Source: Candidatus Babelota bacterium (GTDB lineage: Bacteria > Babelota > Babeliae > Babelales > CAIQNR01). Taken from it: a stretch of DNA of 64,000 nt. Positions 7,083 through 15,293 of this stretch are shown here, in pieces. The stretch covers positions 72,722 to 136,721 of the forward strand of contig CBFHTA010000001.1 of assembly GCA_965658655.1 (NCBI GenBank), in the 5' to 3' direction. The notes below the pieces were generated by a model. It did not search any database. It was not told where the DNA came from and was given only the letters and a program-made list of their open reading frames with translations. The number at the start of each line of letters is the position of its first letter. Position 1 is the stretch's first letter. Made by a program: the position numbers and the translations under genes.

Positions 7083-7643
7083 TTATGCACGCTCAATATA
7101 ACTACCATCTCTGGTATCAAGCTTAACCTTATCACCTTCATTAACAAATAGCGGAACTTGAACCGTTTTCCCAGTTTCAAGTATAGCGGGTTTGGTTGCA
7201 CCACCCTTTGCAGTGTCTCCACGAACGCCAGGTTGAGTTTCTTTAACCTCAAGAACCATAAATAATGGTGGTGTTACACCAATTGGTTTACCGTCAAAAT
7301 AAAGCATTTCATAGATTTCTTCTTCTTTAAGATAACCCATTACATCTTCTAAATTGCCTTTATCTAAAGAGACTTGATCAAAACTTTCTTGATCCATAAA
7401 GTTGTAAAGTGCGTCATCAGCATATAAATACTGCATGGATTTACGCTCAAGCTGTGGATTGTTGAATTTATGATCAGATCTAAATGTTTCCTCAAAAGCA
7501 GAACCTGAAATTAAATTTTTAAGCTTAAGTCTAATGATTGCCCCACCTCGACCCATTTTATTATGGTGGAAATCAAGAACTAAATGTGGTTCATCTCTAT
7601 GCAAAATCTTGTTGCCTTTACGCAAATCAGACGCTGAAAACAT
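7083..7643 (-). CDS. efp: Elongation factor P
   Basis: DLRKG, KMGRGGA tip loop, PGVRGDTA and KPAILETG...VPLFVNEGDKVKLDTRDGSYIER motifs. Confidence 0.97.
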   Translation of the reverse strand: MFSASDLRKGNKILHRDEPHLVLDFHHNKMGRGGAIIRLKLKNLISGSAFEETFRSDHKFNNPQLERKSMQYLYADDALYNFMDQESFDQVSLDKGNLEDVMGYLKEEEIYEMLYFDGKPIGVTPPLFMVLEVKETQPGVRGDTAKGGATKPAILETGKTVQVPLFVNEGDKVKLDTRDGSYIERA

Positions 7644-7743
7644 AAATACCTTTCAAAGACAAAAAAGTGAAAAACGCTTATTCATCAGTATAAGCAGCCT
7701 TATATAAAAAGCAACTCAGAGCTTATTTATTTGCCCAAAGTTT

Positions 7744-9099
7744 TTATTTTTTTCGCATCAAATATAACATTCGTTTTGAATTAACAATTTGCTCTTTAAA
7801 TTCGATCTCAAAATGTTTCAAAAATGCCTCTTCAAAACCATCTTCAGAATATTCTATAAAAATATCCGCTCGAGTCGCCAAAAGCTTTTTTACTTTTTTG
7901 TCAGCTTTAGGAACAAATTCAATAATCAACCACTGCCCCAAAGAAGCAAAGTAAGAAGCAATATAATCAAGAGGAATATTATTAGAAATAGCTAAATGAT
8001 GCACTAATGCAAGCGCCAATAAACAATCTGGCTTACCTCTTTTTTCTATAGCAATACGTTCTGTATTCGCCCAACCAACTGGAGGTGATGGATTAGTTAA
8101 GTCAAGAAGTAAAGGTAAGATTTTAATTTCATTATTTTTTTTACTTTGAAGATAATTATTTTCTACACATGCAGGATCAATATCAAAACAAAGAACTTGA
8201 TCACTTATTTTTGCTGCAAGTCTACTAAAGAAACCATCATTACCACCCAGATCCCAAACTAATTTAGGTTGTGTAATACGTAAAAATTCATCTACTAATC
8301 GTTGTTTATCTTTAAGGCCCATTTCTGTATAACTATCATCTTGATAATAATCTACCCACTCGGTGCCCTGAGCCGTCCATTTACATCCTATAATACCTGA
8401 TCGCAAACTATCAATAAGGCCTTTCAATTGGTGTAAAGACATTTTTTTTTCTGAAGTTGCTTGTTTAGTACTATCTTCATATGCTTTTTGCGCTCGAGCA
8501 TGTAAATGGACATGTAACAATAAAGATAACCGTAAACATGTAGTCATCGGTAATAACTTAGAAGCTAAATCAAGCGGAACACCATCAATATGATTTTTAA
8601 ATAAAGAATTTAAGCGAATATCCTTATAAGCCATTAAAGCCAAAGGAGCTAAGAAATGCTGACAAAACTGTTTATAAGCAACCCAAGGTTTTTCTTCTTT
8701 ATATTGCTCGAAAGAAAGAGTATCAATAAAGATAGGTTTGCCATCTTTAAACTGTACATTATAAACTGATGCATCCTTTAAAGACATGCCATGATCAAGC
8801 GCCTTTAATTGAATATCAAGAGTCAATAGAGCAGCATCCTTTAACTGACTAAAAGACCATTCATAGGGGTAAGAAACAAAAGGAATAAGGTGAGGAGCAA
8901 TCACTCGAGACTCGAGATCATTAAGAATTTCTTCATGAGAAATAAGTAATTTTTGACTTACTAATACCTCATACAATCCAGAGTTTTTCAACAAATCGTA
9001 ATCTTTAAAATAGGAGGAATTAATTTTTCGATAAAGCTGCCCCTGATTCCAATAGAGAAATCCGTTAGGATCTCTAAAAGATGCCTTTACTTTTTCCAC
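7744..9099 (-). CDS. NoeA-like protein: kinase-like N-domain fused to class I SAM methyltransferase
   Basis: SFRDP N-terminus; LKDASVYN...IFID kinase-like motifs; C-terminal VWDLGGNDGFFS, CFDID and LALVHHL methyltransferase motifs. Confidence 0.75.
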   Translation of the reverse strand: MEKVKASFRDPNGFLYWNQGQLYRKINSSYFKDYDLLKNSGLYEVLVSQKLLISHEEILNDLESRVIAPHLIPFVSYPYEWSFSQLKDAALLTLDIQLKALDHGMSLKDASVYNVQFKDGKPIFIDTLSFEQYKEEKPWVAYKQFCQHFLAPLALMAYKDIRLNSLFKNHIDGVPLDLASKLLPMTTCLRLSLLLHVHLHARAQKAYEDSTKQATSEKKMSLHQLKGLIDSLRSGIIGCKWTAQGTEWVDYYQDDSYTEMGLKDKQRLVDEFLRITQPKLVWDLGGNDGFFSRLAAKISDQVLCFDIDPACVENNYLQSKKNNEIKILPLLLDLTNPSPPVGWANTERIAIEKRGKPDCLLALALVHHLAISNNIPLDYIASYFASLGQWLIIEFVPKADKKVKKLLATRADIFIEYSEDGFEEAFLKHFEIEFKEQIVNSKRMLYLMRKK

Positions 9100-9113
9100 A
9101 ATGATCCCCGATT

Positions 9114-9299
9114 CTATTTAGAAAATTTACGTGTAAAATAAGACTTAATCACACTCCAATAAGTCTTTATTCCGTAAAGAACCCCCACAATCCCAGCTGC
9201 AAATAACTGTAAAAAATAACTTCCAGTACCGGGATCAATATAGCCATAGGCCGAACTTACTACTGTTAATGATACCAATAATGTGACTAGTCTCTTCAT
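9114..9299 (-). CDS. Small membrane protein with YIDPGTGS motif
   Basis: 61 aa with AAGGAG RBS: signal peptide (..SSAYG), YIDPGTGS, one TM helix, basic tail (TRKFSK). Confidence 0.85.
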   Translation of the reverse strand: MKRLVTLLVSLTVVSSAYGYIDPGTGSYFLQLFAAGIVGVLYGIKTYWSVIKSYFTRKFSK

Positions 9300-9580
9300 T
9301 GTAACTCCTTTTTAATTACACTTTTTAAAATCATTTTTAGGCTAAAACATAAAGAACTTAAGTCAATATATCCCAGTATTTAAAGCCTTCATCTAAAGTT
9401 TTCATATCCCAACAATCTTTACCTCATAAGGTATAATTGAAAAATTAATACATGCTGTTTTCCTTACCTGAAACAAAACTATAGCTTCGCGGATCACGTA
9501 ATCGATTGTTGACTATAAAAAAACCAATTGGTGTATATTGCCAATCTTGATCTTGTCCTGCAAATAAAGAGTTAACTTTT

Positions 9581-11119
9581 TTATTGTCCCCCCATTTCTA
9601 TGGTATTTATTTCATTAATCGGCATTTTAACTATCGTATGCATATCAATATTTTTTAGGAAATGAAAGTATGAAAAATAGCAATTATCTGGCAATACACT
9701 TAATTCTTCTCCCAAATAATAATTAAAAAGAACTCTAAAAGTATTCACACTCGAAATAGAATGATAAAGTTTATCTCTTCCTCCATTAGGAAAGTATAAA
9801 GCATTTAAAATTGACATTCTTTCTTTAACTGGAAGTTTTTTATTACTTTTAAATATACTTCTATCTGAAAAATCTCCATGATCTCCCTGAACAATAATCA
9901 CAGGAGGACTTTGAGAATTTTTTAAAATTGCTTCAATACATTTTTTTGTATGTAAATTTACAGCTTTTACTTGATTGATGTAACTTTCTTTTTGGCTTTC
10001 AATAAAGATTCCTGAATCATCACTATTACCTTCTATAATAGTTCCGTCTGCGTTAAAAGCTGCTGGACCATGAGGGCAAACAATATGACAAAAAACAAAT
10101 AACGGACCCTTACCAGCATACTTAGAAGGGATTTTTTCTAATATTTTAAATTGATCAAGTATATTGTGCCCTCTATTAAATAATTTAAAATACTGCGCAA
10201 AAGGAACAAAAAGTGTTTTTGACAAAATATGAGAAGAAAAAAAACCAAACAATTGCACTCTCTTTCCATAGTCTGCACTTGAAATATAATTACACGGGGA
10301 CCAAACGCTTCCAATATTAATAAATGTATACCCATGGCCCTTCAATAAACGTATAACTTCCGCATTTTCCCAAAAATTACCTGTTGTAAGCGGCCATCTT
10401 TTATTTTTTTTCAAAACCTCATCAGAAGATAAATAGTCCATCAGAAAGGTGGAAGACAAAGAAGCCTCCGTATGGCAATAATTACTACAACTCTGTTCTG
10501 CAATAAAAAACCCTTTAGTCTTTAAGAACTCAATAAAATTATTATTGTTATAGCCAAATTGCTCTTGTAAAACATCATGTCGAGTATAAGCATCGAGAAT
10601 GATATAATAAATATTAGGCTTTTCACCAATGTTTTTTTTTACGTATCCTGGCTTTTTAAAGTTAAACATTTGCCACTCTGCCCAATAATCCGGAATGATC
10701 ATAATGCAAGAAGAAACAAAAAAGCATCCTGTTAAAAAAGTAAAAAAATGAACTGTTTTTTTAGGATTTAACAAAGTAGAAATTAAATATGCAAAAATTA
10801 TAAATATTATCCCATACAGTGCTATTAAATAACGATAGTGCCCCCAAGAAAATTGTGAAAACCACTTAAAGCACACAGAGCAGTGACCAAGTAAAAGTGA
10901 GAAGAGAAAAAAAGCAACCGCAAACAGAAACGTATAAATTCGAGCTTTATATTTATTCTTAAAAAGAAGAGTTGCTCCTAAATAACAAATAAAGAAACTT
11001 GCGTTCAGTAGGCCCCAAAGACAAGCAACCTCTAATGCTCTAGTTTCTCGTATATTAGACTTTAACCCATTTTGAATATATCCAGAAATCAAAAAAAATG
11101 TCTCTAATGGTAACATCAC
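9581..11119 (-). CDS. Membrane-anchored alkaline-phosphatase-superfamily transferase (LtaS/EptA/sulfatase-like)
   Basis: About 4 N-terminal TMs, then [23 protein letters not shown] (candidate Thr nucleophile), HIVCPHGP and IVQGDHG metal-binding motifs; AGGAGAGG RBS. Confidence 0.8.
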
Positions 11120-11223
11120 CTCTCCTTTTTAAGCTTAAAAAACCCCTCATACCTTACCCCATTTCTCTAAAAATAAAACCCTGGTATTCTAAGAAAGATG
11201 CTAATTTTTACCTAGGAGAATCC

Positions 11224-12504
11224 ATGAGCTTAAAAACTATCGATCCACAAATTTCAGCTGCTATAAATCAAGAGCTAGAGCGGTCAGAACTCACCTTAGA
11301 TTTAATAGCGTCAGAAAATTACACATGGCCTGCTGTTATGGAAGCGACCGGATCGGTCATGACCAATAAATACGCTGAGGGGTATCCTTCTCGAAGATAC
11401 TATAGTGGATGTGTTCATGTTGATACAGCGGAAAATTTAGCTCGCGATCGCGTAAAAAAATTATTTGGGGCTGAACATGCTAACGTTCAACCTCATTCTG
11501 GTTCTCAGGCAAATATGGCTGTTTATTTTGCTATTTTAAATCCCGGCGACACTATCTTAGGGATGAATCTAGCAGCTGGCGGACATTTAACTCACGGATA
11601 CCCAATCAATTTTTCTGGCAAATTTTATAATTCTATTAACTATGGTGTAAACAAAGACACAGAACAATTGGATTATGATGAAATTGAGCGCCTTGCAAAA
11701 GAACATAAGCCAAAACTGATTATCAGTGGGGCTTCTGCTTATTCACAATTTATAGACTTTGAACGCATTGCAAAAATTGCAAAATCTGTTGGTGCTTACT
11801 CTTTAGCCGATATCGCTCATATCGCTGGTCCTATAGCAGCAGGTCTGCACCCTTCTCCTTTTCCACATATGGATTTTGTAACAAGCACAACACACAAAAC
11901 ACTACGTGGTCCTCGTGGAGGATTAATTTTATGCAAAAAAGAATTTGCATCAAAAGTAGATAAAGCTATTATGCCAGGTATTCAAGGTGGCCCACTAATG
12001 CACCATATTGCAGCAAAGGCGGTAGCTTTTAAGATTGCTCTTGAGCCAGAATTCAAAGAATATCAGCAGCAAGTTCTCCTCAATGCAAAAACAATGGCAG
12101 ACACTTTTGCAAAACTTGGTTATCGAATAGTAACAGGTTCTACAAAAAATCATTTAATGGTTGTAGACGTAAGAAGCAAAAACATCACAGGTAAAGAAGC
12201 TGAAGAAACACTCGAAAAAATAGGCATCGTAGTAAACAGAAACTGCATTCCATTCGATACAGAAAGCCCTTTTGTGACCAGCGGCATTCGCCTAGGAACA
12301 CCGGCTTTAACAAGTCGCGGATTCAAAGAAACTGAGATGCGCTTAATTACTCAACTAATAGATAAAGCAATTAAAAATCGAGACAATGAAGAAGTACTAA
12401 ACGGCATTACAAAAGATATTAAAACCCTCTGCTTATCATTCCCTATTTACAAAGACCAACTGTCTGCTATATCTACACAAAGAGAAAGCATTATTCAGCA
12501 ATAA
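11224..12504 (+). CDS. glyA: Serine hydroxymethyltransferase
   Basis: [15 protein letters not shown] and [14 protein letters not shown] (PLP lysine). Start at the ATG following an AGGAG RBS. Confidence 0.98.
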
Positions 12505-12521: not shown

Positions 12522-13211
12522 ATGAAGGCAGAATTTGATCAGTTTGCAAAAAATTATCGTAATGATCAAACAGACGGTCACAATTTTCTAACAGGAGAAG
12601 ATAGCCATTACTTTGCTCGTTTAAAAGCAGAAAAACTTAAAGAGTGGCTTCCTTTTTATTTTTCAGGTACCCCACAAACTATACTTGATTTTGGCTGCGG
12701 CGATGGAGTTATGACTCAGGAAGTCTATCGCCAATTCCCTAAGTCAGAAATTCATGGAGTCGATAACTCTTCTGAAAGTGTAAAAATCGCTCGGAAGAAC
12801 TACCCCCATATCAATTATCACATTTCAACCGATAATTTATCTATGCTTGAAGCAAACTCATTTAACGTTGTCTTAGCAACTCATGTATTTCATCATATTT
12901 ATTTTAACGAGCACGAACACTACATCAAAGAACTTATGCGTGTATTAAAGCCAGGTGGAGTATTTGTATTTTATGAACTCAATCCACTAAACCCAGGAAC
13001 CTGGTATATTTTTAAAAACCATCCCATGGAAGTAAACGCTACCATGCTAAAGCCATGGTATACTCGCAAACTTGTAGCACCCTACGGGACCACTGATTTT
13101 ATTAGTTATGCCTTTTTTCCTAATTTTTTAAAAACTCTTAGACCTTTAGAAAAATATATATCTAAGATACCCCTTGGAGGATTGTACGCTATTATTTTAA
13201 AAAAATCTTAG
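12522..13211 (+). CDS. Class I SAM-dependent methyltransferase
   Basis: ILDFGCGDG, GVDNS, VFHHI and RVLKPGG motifs. Confidence 0.9.
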   Translation: MKAEFDQFAKNYRNDQTDGHNFLTGEDSHYFARLKAEKLKEWLPFYFSGTPQTILDFGCGDGVMTQEVYRQFPKSEIHGVDNSSESVKIARKNYPHINYHISTDNLSMLEANSFNVVLATHVFHHIYFNEHEHYIKELMRVLKPGGVFVFYELNPLNPGTWYIFKNHPMEVNATMLKPWYTRKLVAPYGTTDFISYAFFPNFLKTLRPLEKYISKIPLGGLYAIILKKS

Positions 13212-13220
13212 TCTACACTC

Positions 13221-14123
13221 TTAAGGTTCAGCCTGATTCACACGAAGAAACAGAGACACTAAAAAAAAAATTAATAATACAAAGAATAATGCTGGACCAA
13301 TACAAATAAAGAAAAAATAAACCCAGTTAATAATGTCTAAGTAGCGATTAGATACGCCGCTCTGAGAATAATAATACAATACGGGACCGCTCCAATAACG
13401 AAAAGGAAGCTCAATAGTATTACGAATCAACCAAGAAGAAGAATAACTGCCATATTGAAACATCAAAATATTATTAAAATGGGCTAACCAATAAATAGGA
13501 TATGTTTCTAGTCGAGCTTTATAAGCAACTTCTCCATAGAAAACAGACTCTATTTTTTTAAAAGAACCATCTAATAAAGAGTTTGCGATATCAATTGCTC
13601 CTAACAATTGACCATCCCTTTGAAAGCTTACATTAAAAGTAGGGTCATATATTATCCATTTTCCATTTTGAAAAACTTCAACTAAAGTATGAGTTGCAAA
13701 AGGGTCTCCAATACTTTTCACAACAAACAATTTGCGTGCTTTATATCCTTGCAAACATAGCGCATATAAGAAGAGCTCTGACATTCCATTACAAGTTAGT
13801 CCCCCTCCTAATTTTGCATTAGTATAAAAATCTCTAACATGCTCAGATTTCCATTTACGATTGTTCTTTTTATCTACAAAATTCATCACTTTTTGCATTA
13901 TTTCAACTGGAGAATCTCCCTTAAATTTAGAAAGTTCTTGCGGCGGTGAATATGGATACCGATAATCAAGAGCTTTAAAATTTTTAACAGGCACTGTTCT
14001 CAAAAAATGATTATGATTTCGCAAGAAATAAAAAACTTTATATTCAAAAAAAGCAATCAAAAACAAGGCGCCCAAAAGCATATAACGCCATTTATCATCG
14101 ATATTTATTTTTGATTTATTCAT
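13221..14123 (-). CDS. Membrane-anchored transglutaminase-like domain protein
   Basis: N- and C-terminal TM; Cys-His-Asp triad context GLTCNGMS / HTLVEV / WIIYDPT. Confidence 0.7.
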   Translation of the reverse strand: MNKSKINIDDKWRYMLLGALFLIAFFEYKVFYFLRNHNHFLRTVPVKNFKALDYRYPYSPPQELSKFKGDSPVEIMQKVMNFVDKKNNRKWKSEHVRDFYTNAKLGGGLTCNGMSELFLYALCLQGYKARKLFVVKSIGDPFATHTLVEVFQNGKWIIYDPTFNVSFQRDGQLLGAIDIANSLLDGSFKKIESVFYGEVAYKARLETYPIYWLAHFNNILMFQYGSYSSSWLIRNTIELPFRYWSGPVLYYYSQSGVSNRYLDIINWVYFFFICIGPALFFVLLIFFLVSLFLRVNQAEP

Positions 14124-14168
14124 ATATACTCTTGCTGCTCAATACATCCTCTAGAAGACTCATATTAC

Positions 14169-15293
14169 TTACTCACAAAAATACACATTAAGGAAATGAA
14201 TAACTGAATGCACTCCATATAATACTGCCACACTAACAAAACCCAATAAATAAAGCATTGTAGGAATTGTTAAAAAACCTGGGAGGGCCCCAATAAATAA
14301 CATTGCCAAATAAGGGATTTCTATACGCCACGATTTGGGACTATAATATGCTGCAATTAAACCTATATTTGAAAACAATAGAAAGTAATAAATGAGTATT
14401 CCTAATTTTGCGAACAATACTCGCAATACAAAATTAGGGCTGTAAAAACATAAATTTATAACTTCATTACGCAAAATAGATTCATAGTGTGAATTTAAAT
14501 ATACCGCCTGACCATCTATTTCTTTTACTCTTGCCATTGAACAACCATCGGAAAAATTAATATTCTTATTATTAGTAATAAATCCAAAACCCATATAAAT
14601 ATTATGCCAAAATGTATGTTGTAACTTTGCTTCTTTAAATACATACCGTTGCCTATGTAAATATTGATTGCGATGTTTTATTACATTATGTATATGCAAT
14701 TTAGCAGATCCTATTCCCAAAGTAAGCAAACTCAATAATAAAAAAGTTTTACGAGAAACCCTACAAGAACAAACAACAGCAACAATCGTACCTACTAGAA
14801 GAGGCAACCCCGAAAAACTTCTTACAAAATTACCATACTCAATTACCAAACCCACTAACAAACTATAAGCACAAAGACTTTTATAATATTTTTTTTCTAG
14901 CAAAAATAAAAACCAAGGGAAAAAGGAAACCGTAAAAAAATAAGTTACATAAACATCTGAAGACAACCATGCAACACCACCCAATCCACTTACACCAAAA
15001 AGCACTATGCTCTTACCAAGCAACGTTTTTGCTTGAGATAGAAGCGCTGTTCCTGCAAAAAAAACACCCGAAAAAACCTGTACTAAAAGAAACCACCAGG
15101 CAGCATCTAAAGCTGATAAATCAAAAAATGAAGCAAAGAGTGGAACGAAATAGAAAAGGCCGGCCTCTCCGCCAAAAGAATGTTCTACAGGAACCGGTTG
15201 AGTTTTTGCATATTTAAGAAGAGAAATCCCTGTTTGTTGATATAATGCCGTTGCCGCTTTAAGAATGCCAATTCGTATGGGCATAAGATTCAT
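14169..15293 (-). CDS. Polytopic membrane protein, GT-C-like group A (FWHN family) copy 1
   Basis: 374 aa; HTFWHNIYMGFG, FAKLG and ALPG motifs shared with three other ORFs in the locus. Confidence 0.7.
   Translation of the reverse strand: MNLMPIRIGILKAATALYQQTGISLLKYAKTQPVPVEHSFGGEAGLFYFVPLFASFFDLSALDAAWWFLLVQVFSGVFFAGTALLSQAKTLLGKSIVLFGVSGLGGVAWLSSDVYVTYFFTVSFFPWFLFLLEKKYYKSLCAYSLLVGLVIEYGNFVRSFSGLPLLVGTIVAVVCSCRVSRKTFLLLSLLTLGIGSAKLHIHNVIKHRNQYLHRQRYVFKEAKLQHTFWHNIYMGFGFITNNKNINFSDGCSMARVKEIDGQAVYLNSHYESILRNEVINLCFYSPNFVLRVLFAKLGILIYYFLLFSNIGLIAAYYSPKSWRIEIPYLAMLFIGALPGFLTIPTMLYLLGFVSVAVLYGVHSVIHFLNVYFCE

Follow-up and report, generated by a model that had tools for sequence, protein, structure and literature searches.

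Filamentous phages make small coat proteins that are inserted through Sec/YidC, cleaved by signal peptidase and built on the procoat plan: a leader ending in a small-x-small site is followed by a few acidic residues outside, a single helix and a basic C terminus. LPXTG and PEP-CTERM sorting signals combine a short conserved motif, a hydrophobic helix and basic residues. BcsF of E. coli-type cellulose secretion is a small single-pass inner-membrane peptide (PMC11470070); its helix runs on into an amphipathic extension and a cytosolic tail, the tail recruits the otherwise soluble BcsE, and it is encoded in one operon with the membrane AlkP-superfamily phosphotransferase BcsG. WbdD, the chain terminator of the E. 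coli O9a O-antigen, carries a kinase domain and a class I SAM-methyltransferase domain in one chain; according to PMC3447403, it phosphorylates and then methylates the end of the lipid-linked O-antigen and is membrane-bound through its own amphipathic helix. The micro-protein described here would be of a known kind, namely a small subunit with one membrane pass that is accessory to an envelope enzyme and laid out like procoat. Neither the libraries nor the literature that we searched contained its family, its motif or its kinase-methyltransferase partner, or any use of the motif to anchor TagF-like enzymes at their N terminus.

The window, a 64,000-nucleotide stretch of the genome of a Candidatus Babelota bacterium, encodes the micro-protein on the minus strand in a frame that runs from an ATG at 9299 to a TAG stop at 9116-9114. 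The genes and the site needed for the comparison are as follows, in window coordinates.

7744-9099, minus strand: partner gene, 451 aa, with a GTG start 14 nt past the micro-protein stop (ORF reading)
9114..9299, minus strand: micro-protein gene, 61 aa plus stop (ORF reading)
9305..9310, minus strand: Shine-Dalgarno sequence AAGGAG, 5 nt 5' of the ATG (sequence reading)
9581..11119, minus strand: membrane-anchored sulfatase/alkaline-phosphatase-superfamily protein, 512 aa, 281 nt upstream of the micro-protein (weak Pfam match, phmmer and conserved residues)

An earlier sequence-only reading had reported the 61-aa ORF, a strong AAGGAG ribosome-binding site and a YIDPGTGS motif encoded at 9242-9219. 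The exact translation that it quoted was recovered from the minus strand, the ribosome-binding site was found at 9310-9305 at the spacing given above, and the coding position of the motif was verified. In a scan of positions 7500-11300, no terminator was found and promoter-like sites did not rise above those in shuffled sequence.

The micro-protein is present as a single copy in its own genome (929 kb, 4 contigs, 95% complete). A word-indexed search returned three relatives of 60-61 aa with 65-70% identity to it over the full alignment. A profile built from the micro-protein and these three relatives and run against 1.84 billion cluster representatives matched 5,728 representatives at E<=1e-3 and 303 at E<=1e-10; the 5,728 are clusters at 50% identity and constitute a lower bound. 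Nearly all of the 150 family matches listed were between 56 and 163 aa long. A pattern scan of species-representative genomes gave more than 601 stretches, 436 of them confirmed. By their record labels, the best 80 loci belong to Bacillota, Chloroflexota, Nitrospirota, Armatimonadota, Planctomycetota and Acidobacteriota/Aminicenantes, as well as Omnitrophota, Desulfobacterota, Gammaproteobacteria, Bdellovibrionota, Patescibacteria, Dependentiae and others. No model in Pfam-A, NCBIfam or PHROGs covers the micro-protein or the scanned relatives: the micro-protein had zero Pfam matches at E<=1, none was recurrent among 51 relatives scanned, and PHROGs gave nothing better than E 0.002 for any of 49 family members. 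The nearest ESM Atlas clusters (scores of 0.88-0.89) consist of unnamed "hypothetical protein" entries, and a full-text literature search with YIDPGTGS-type motif strings returned no relevant paper. Conservation at the protein level across phyla rules out a chance ORF, and 9114-9299 is therefore confirmed as a real gene of a large, widespread and unnamed family, its translation being a prediction from sequence. The sequencing runs listed as covering the stretch are DNA runs of one study, with no RNA run among them. The earlier remark that gene callers often miss genes of this size holds only in part, as thousands of homologues are already predicted proteins in public collections.

Four segments can be distinguished in the protein.

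9243..9299, minus strand: leader, residues 1-19, with MKR, a hydrophobic core and A-Y-G (hydropathy maximum at residues 4-14)
9219..9242, minus strand: invariant motif YIDPGTGS, residues 20-27, predicted outside (family conservation counts)
9168..9218, minus strand: transmembrane helix, residues 28-44, with Gln31, A35, G36 and G39 (mean Kyte-Doolittle hydropathy 1.81)
9117..9167, minus strand: basic amphipathic tail, residues 45-61, with K45, W48, I51, K52 and F55, predicted cytoplasmic (family conservation)

The leader opens with basic MKR, continues with the hydrophobic stretch LVTLLVSLTVV and closes with A-Y-G, with small residues at -3 and -1. We counted residues in 154 family sequences, numbering positions from the motif Tyr as 0. 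Position -1 is A in 124, G in 22, C in 4 and S in 3, and position -3 is A in 94, V in 30 and S in 11, giving A or G at -1 in 146/154 and A or V at -3 in 124/154; Pro occupies -6 in 57/154. Since this is the classic signal-peptidase-I pattern directly before the Tyr, cleavage after A-Y-G is likely and would expose Tyr20 as the new N terminus. Over positions 0 to 7 the motif reads Y (154), I (82) or L (61), D (152), P (150), G (141), T (121) or S (27), G (153) and S (154), with T or S in 148/154 and Ala in 6/154 at its sixth residue, position 5. The sequence-only reading had made its case depend on conservation of the motif in homologues, and it is borne out by the Tyr and the Ser, both present in 154/154. 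The helix is marked by Q at position 11 (153 sequences), A at 15 (139) and G at 19 (128), and the tail by K at 25 (149), W at 28 (150), I at 31 (124), K at 32 (114) and F at 35 (117). Tail hydroxyls are variable, with Y (85) or F (59) at +27 and S (47), A (35) or G (17) at +33. Residues 45-61 have a hydrophobic moment of 0.75 and a mean hydropathy of -0.48. Conservation in the family is strongest outside the membrane and in the outer half of the helix. The protein is basic at either end, and in relatives described below the helix is followed by a fused cytoplasmic enzyme; these two features place the motif outside and the tail inside, so that the predicted topology is N-out/C-in.

To locate the partner at other loci, we used an HMM built from eight relatives of the window's partner. 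At 73 of 80 micro-protein loci from many phyla, the next gene downstream, in the same orientation, is a partner-family ORF of ~460 aa; three of these ORFs were fragmented by ORF calling and several were clipped at contig ends, and across the 73 loci the micro-protein stop and the partner start often overlap. The exceptions comprise one contig that ends after the micro-protein (L074), one locus with a sulfatase-like gene directly after the micro-ORF instead of the partner (L066), two with the partner ~3 kb upstream (L078 and L086) and three with other genes after the micro-protein (L026, L034 and L087). The 80 loci are the most query-similar of those found, which biases the 73/80 towards the query subfamily, and whole-genome samples are therefore the better test of linkage. 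Among 61 genomes of the own order, the micro-protein was found in 11 (E<=1e-10), and the full-length partner in 9 of these 11 and in 0/50 non-carriers. The Nitrospirota sample (93 genomes) had 11 carriers, with the partner in the same 11 and in 0/82 non-carriers. The third sample, 101 genomes from the phylum of a MAG labelled Armatimonadota, again had 11 carriers; the partner occurred in 11/11, adjacent in 8 and on a separate contig in 3, and in 0/90 non-carriers. Pooled over the three phylum samples, the partner was present in 31 of 33 carriers and in 0 of 222 other genomes, counts to which we attach no statistic because related genomes are not independent. The two own-order carriers without a full-length partner have a free micro-ORF directly before a TagF-like (PF04464) gene.

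Paralogues of the kinase-methyltransferase whose matches cover only parts of it (E 1e-12 to 1e-31) were also seen in genomes G021, G034, G041, G057 and G060, mostly within 387-502-aa frames and away from any micro-protein gene, and some genomes without the micro-protein have them as well. The closest public relative (L022/P0003/P0156), a 12.7-kb contig whose partner is 81% identical, is labelled as an "Alteromonas naphthalenivorans" MAG; other near relatives are labelled Dependentiae and the genome with the window has only 929 kb, and the Alteromonas label looks doubtful.

The partner protein was modelled with a pLDDT of 91.5 at full length and of 89.7 for residues 1-246 alone, and it divides into two domains.

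8374..9099, minus strand: N-terminal protein-kinase-like domain, residues 1-242 (predicted model, fold matches)
7744..8373, minus strand: C-terminal class I SAM-methyltransferase domain, residues 243-451, plus stop (predicted model, fold matches)

All 48 Foldseek matches listed for the kinase-like domain are kinases, at E about 1e-4, and all 50 VIA rows are kinases or pseudokinases, with middling Z values of 8.4-10.0 over 164-205 aligned residues. D109, N114 and D126 are invariant in the partner family and are spaced like the catalytic loop and the metal-binding Asp of kinases. Because the matches are uniform and these three residues are invariant, a protein-kinase-like domain is the best reading of the modelled residues 1-242 despite the middling Z values. 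Residues 243-451 match many class I SAM-methyltransferases at VIA Z 16-18, all tied and therefore assigning no subtype; the Foldseek matches of this domain include WbdD. A sequence search of the PDB with the single partner protein gave no match, and the partner profile gave marginal methyltransferase matches only. The partner sequence contains no membrane segment. Its family is large, with at least 8,000 relatives, all scored ones at E<=1e-20, and the 120 nearest relatives listed are 54-81% identical across phyla. Their source labels are "SAM-dependent methyltransferase," "PrmA" or "RlmE/FtsJ"; the "PrmA" label is wrong. N336-P337, just past strand 4, is also invariant in the partner and presumably recalls the (D/N)PP(Y/F/W) motif of amino-group methyltransferases.

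In its predicted function, the modelled partner resembles WbdD. The two differ in domain order, as the methyltransferase comes first in WbdD and the kinase-like domain comes first in the partner, and their sequence similarity is not significant (E 0.48-0.72, profile versus PDB, methyltransferase part only). Reversed order and insignificant similarity together rule out the partner as a member of the WbdD family. WbdD also has its own amphipathic membrane helix and a coiled coil, whereas the partner is without a C-terminal extension. The anchor is thus part of WbdD itself, but for the partner it would come from the separate micro-protein.

The micro-protein profile also matched 83 longer proteins. 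In 45 of these the module stands at the N terminus and is followed by PF04464, the TagB/TagF-type glycerophosphotransferase domain. One protein of 493 aa, from a 2.3-kb contig, joins the module to a 35%-identical relative of the partner, with the first ~58 residues of the kinase-like domain missing, and one of 893 aa joins a deviant motif to a sulfatase domain. Two other predicted proteins, P0011 (161 aa) with two tandem copies of the module and P0123 (393 aa) with the module at the C terminus behind a GT2 glycosyltransferase domain, could be either true fusions or two genes merged by the gene caller.

At 80 metagenome loci with the TagF-fused form (L102-L181), 78 TagF-like ORFs were found, and 72 of these carry the motif. 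For 63 of the 72, every available start codon is 14 codons or fewer ahead of the Tyr, and these forms therefore have no leader; among the others, one continues past the end of its contig and eight have a longer frame ahead of the Tyr, which is leader-like in a few cases. The motif accordingly works at or near the N terminus with or without a cleaved leader, standing 3-14 residues behind a start codon in the leaderless relatives, and the strictly free N-terminal Tyr of the sequence-only reading is not required, since those 63 forms leave no room for a leader. The fusions have only the motif in common with the micro-protein, their helix being without the Gln and their tail being different. Neither the kinase-methyltransferase nor the window-type sulfatase family was found at the 80 TagF-fused loci. 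At 68 of them the TagF-like gene adjoins one for a protein of ~890 aa, for example at L126:1582-4248 on the plus strand, in which a YidC/60KD_IMP domain (E 4.4e-21) and an AlkP-like domain are combined with additional membrane helices, and this AlkP-like domain aligns distantly with the window's sulfatase type (hhalign 84.5%, E 6.9e-6). Phosphonate genes are often present at these loci, namely a PEP mutase-cytidylyltransferase fusion, a TPP decarboxylase and an aminotransferase.

Apart from a few long gene calls, every one of the 154 stand-alone forms has the module at its N terminus, as do the PF04464 fusions. The sequence-only reading had likened the micro-protein to an LPxTG or PEP-CTERM sorting signal, and the analogy fails at this point, because the module is N-terminal and a fused enzyme comes after it, in the cytoplasm. 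The same N-terminal position rules out a sorting signal of the C-terminal type that has lost its passenger. No sortase- or exosortase-like gene was found among the neighbours scanned.

The partner consists of kinase-like and methyltransferase domains without a membrane segment. For this reason, and because of the adjacency, the co-occurrence, the alternative TagF-like partner and the fusions, we propose, with confidence that is about evenly balanced, that the micro-protein is an N-out/C-in single-pass membrane anchor or adaptor subunit for cytoplasmic phospho-glycopolymer enzymes. An anchor or adaptor is the simplest function that fits every context. The sequence-only reading had offered a covalent carrier, a glycan acceptor or anchor, and an enzyme subunit; its interpretation is partly supported, with the enzyme subunit favoured because of adjacency within co-translation range, co-occurrence with the kinase-like/methyltransferase protein and the TagF-like fusions.

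The gene, its family, layout, linkage, co-occurrence and fusions and the partner folds were computed here; cleavage, topology, binding, substrate and the role of the motif we infer, in the following sequence. The leader would take the N terminus of the micro-protein across the membrane, and signal peptidase I would probably cut after A-Y-G to yield a 42-residue peptide. This mature peptide would have its eight-residue YIDPGTGS tail outside, one membrane helix and a basic amphipathic cytoplasmic tail. The partner is probably translated from the same transcript, and the peptide would hold this soluble kinase-like/SAM-methyltransferase protein at the inner membrane face, near lipid-linked phospho-glycopolymer substrates. 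The peptide may also position the partner beside an outward-facing sulfatase/AlkP-type membrane enzyme. Peptide and enzyme would be joined covalently in the fusions and non-covalently where the peptide is free-standing.

BcsF supplies a precedent for this arrangement, as a small peptide that recruits a cytosolic protein and shares an operon with an AlkP-type transferase. However, there is no sequence relation, the micro-protein being without a Pfam match at E<=1, and BcsF serves a c-di-GMP sensor rather than a pair of enzymes. To our knowledge BcsF has neither a leader nor a conserved outer motif, unlike the micro-protein.

Several observations tell against the anchor reading. A plain anchor leaves the invariant outer octet, the near-invariant Gln of the helix and the conserved cleavage site unexplained. 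Only 1 of the 83 longer matches fuses the module to a relative of the partner. Stand-alone forms located before TagF-like genes retain the tail motif, and the tail is therefore not specific to the kinase-methyltransferase. In 3 of the 11 carriers of the third sample, micro-protein and partner are on different contigs. In the own order, moreover, the sulfatase-like gene tracks the micro-protein better (11/11) than the kinase-methyltransferase does (9/11).

The 512-aa product of this sulfatase-like gene has several N-terminal membrane helices. Its match to Pfam Sulfatase (PF00884) is weak (E 3.2e-4; 20.5 bits, under the cut-off of 25), and two of its orthologues exceed that cut-off, with 27.4 and 26.3 bits. 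With phmmer it matched, at E 1e-34 to 1e-55, proteins of ~500-540 aa that follow the partner gene in other phyla, and by sequence comparison it is clearly orthologous to them. In 25 sequences D176, T217 (at least 90%), H345, H350, D413 and G415 are conserved, comprising the superfamily signature of a metal-binding Asp, a nucleophile Thr ~40 residues on, a His pair and Asp-His-Gly, which is also present in a second subfamily. We take this pattern to mark LtaS/EptA-type enzymes. Of the 80 micro-protein loci, 44 contain a sulfatase-family match; for 32 it is to the window's type with E<=1e-40, usually immediately behind the partner gene. At other loci this position is taken by sulfatases of different subfamilies, 600-900 aa long. 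The remaining 36 loci are without a match, and many of their contigs end early. Of the 61 own-order genomes, all 11 that carry the micro-protein have the sulfatase-like family, and 0/50 others do. In Nitrospirota, at the thresholds used, a dedicated sulfatase-like gene of either subfamily is detected in 3 of 11 carriers (type A6 in one, type A10 in two), against 11/11 for the kinase-methyltransferase, and the sulfatase link is thus the looser of the two. The sequence-only reading had expected homologues to be linked to glycan or AlkP-family genes, and linked glycan genes and AlkP/sulfatase-family genes were both found.

In an own-order relative (G023:C12:4930-12063, part of which is L010), three sulfatase-like paralogues stand in tandem upstream of the partner, in the opposite orientation; of two micro-protein matches, the weak one (E 2.3e-4) falls between paralogues two and three, and the strong one immediately precedes the partner. 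Further envelope-type genes occur near the micro-protein in the window, at 12522-15293: a class I methyltransferase gene at 12522-13211 (plus strand), a membrane protein with a transglutaminase-like core at 13221-14123 (minus strand) and a multi-pass membrane protein without any family match at 14169-15293 (minus strand).

These counts bear on a different assignment, which we consider unlikely, in which the micro-protein is a subunit or regulator of the outward-facing sulfatase/AlkP-type enzyme, its helix packing through the Gln and small residues on the membrane domain and its motif contacting the catalytic domain, and the kinase-methyltransferase is a mere pathway neighbour. The exact correspondence in the own order, the 44 loci with a sulfatase match, the two loci (L066 and L086) at which the micro-ORF directly precedes a sulfatase-like gene, the AlkP-like neighbour at 68 of 80 TagF-fused loci and the concentration of the most conserved residues outside or in the outer half of the helix are all consistent with such a role. 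However, it fits poorly with the 3/11 in Nitrospirota and with the 36 loci that are without a match, and in the Bcs system BcsF does not touch BcsG (PMC11470070). A predicted complex of micro-protein residues 20-61 with the 512-aa protein scored 0.01 against a mark of 0.32, in a run without controls, and this score speaks neither for nor against a contact.

Membrane enzymes of the AlkP superfamily are known that put phospho-groups on Ser or Thr of exposed proteins. The hydroxyl of Tyr1, Thr6 or Ser8 of the mature peptide could be phospho-modified by the AlkP-type transferase or prime a polymer, making the micro-protein an acceptor or carrier. The invariance of the motif Tyr and Ser and the catalytic signature kept by the linked sulfatase-like families are in line with this. 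The Ala found at the sixth motif residue in 6/154 sequences is not, many carrier genomes have no detected dedicated AlkP-type gene, and the motif is also found at the start of large enzymes of the cytoplasm, for which there is little logic in acting as a carrier; we therefore rate the acceptor as quite improbable.

The partner itself might act on the micro-protein, the kinase-like domain phosphorylating its cytoplasmic tail or the methyltransferase methylating it, as the protein-kinase-like fold of the neighbour and the strict co-occurrence of the pair in the Nitrospirota and third samples would allow. The tail, however, has no conserved hydroxyl, and the conserved Tyr, Thr and Ser lie across the membrane, which makes this very unlikely. 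A phage-type coat-like or holin-like membrane protein or a toxic peptide unrelated to the flanking genes hardly merits consideration: the leader, short acidic outer segment, helix and basic tail recall the procoat in layout only, but the outer segment has only 8 residues, neither PHROGs (49 members, nothing better than E 0.002) nor the Pfam phage-coat families gave a match, the gene is chromosomal with the same fixed enzyme partner in three phylum samples, and the neighbours scanned are cellular envelope genes with no phage genes among them.

For the anchor or adaptor reading, the invariance of the outer octet, of Gln31 and of the cleavage site suggests that the peptide makes a further contact, in the membrane or outside it, which may be with an AlkP-like enzyme, with a YidC-like insertase domain or with the micro-protein itself. 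Short outer tails are typical of YidC clients, and the likeness to procoat extends to the TagF-fused relatives, which adjoin the protein with a YidC/60KD_IMP domain. A bolder proposal, which we advance as speculative and rather doubtful, is that YIDPGTGS and the helix constitute an undescribed, very widespread N-terminal extracytoplasmic "tail-anchor" signal dedicated to enzymes that build surface polymers with phosphate or phosphonate. The invariant tail outside would serve either for docking, as a handle, or for insertion, as a signal that the YidC-like domain of the neighbouring protein reads; a cytoplasmic enzyme (kinase-methyltransferase or TagF-like) would be coupled across the membrane to an outward AlkP-type transferase in a two-sided complex, and the 61-aa gene would be the free-standing form of the signal.

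If the anchor or adaptor reading is true, an unnamed family of at least 5,728 clusters, spread over many phyla including genome-reduced lineages, would gain a context and a testable role. The large partner family would become tractable as a kinase-like/methyltransferase didomain that may cap or modify envelope glycopolymers. The motif, which also heads TagF-like enzymes in phosphonate clusters, would serve as a search handle for envelope-modification loci, and a concrete question would be posed: for what reason do eight outer residues stay invariant?
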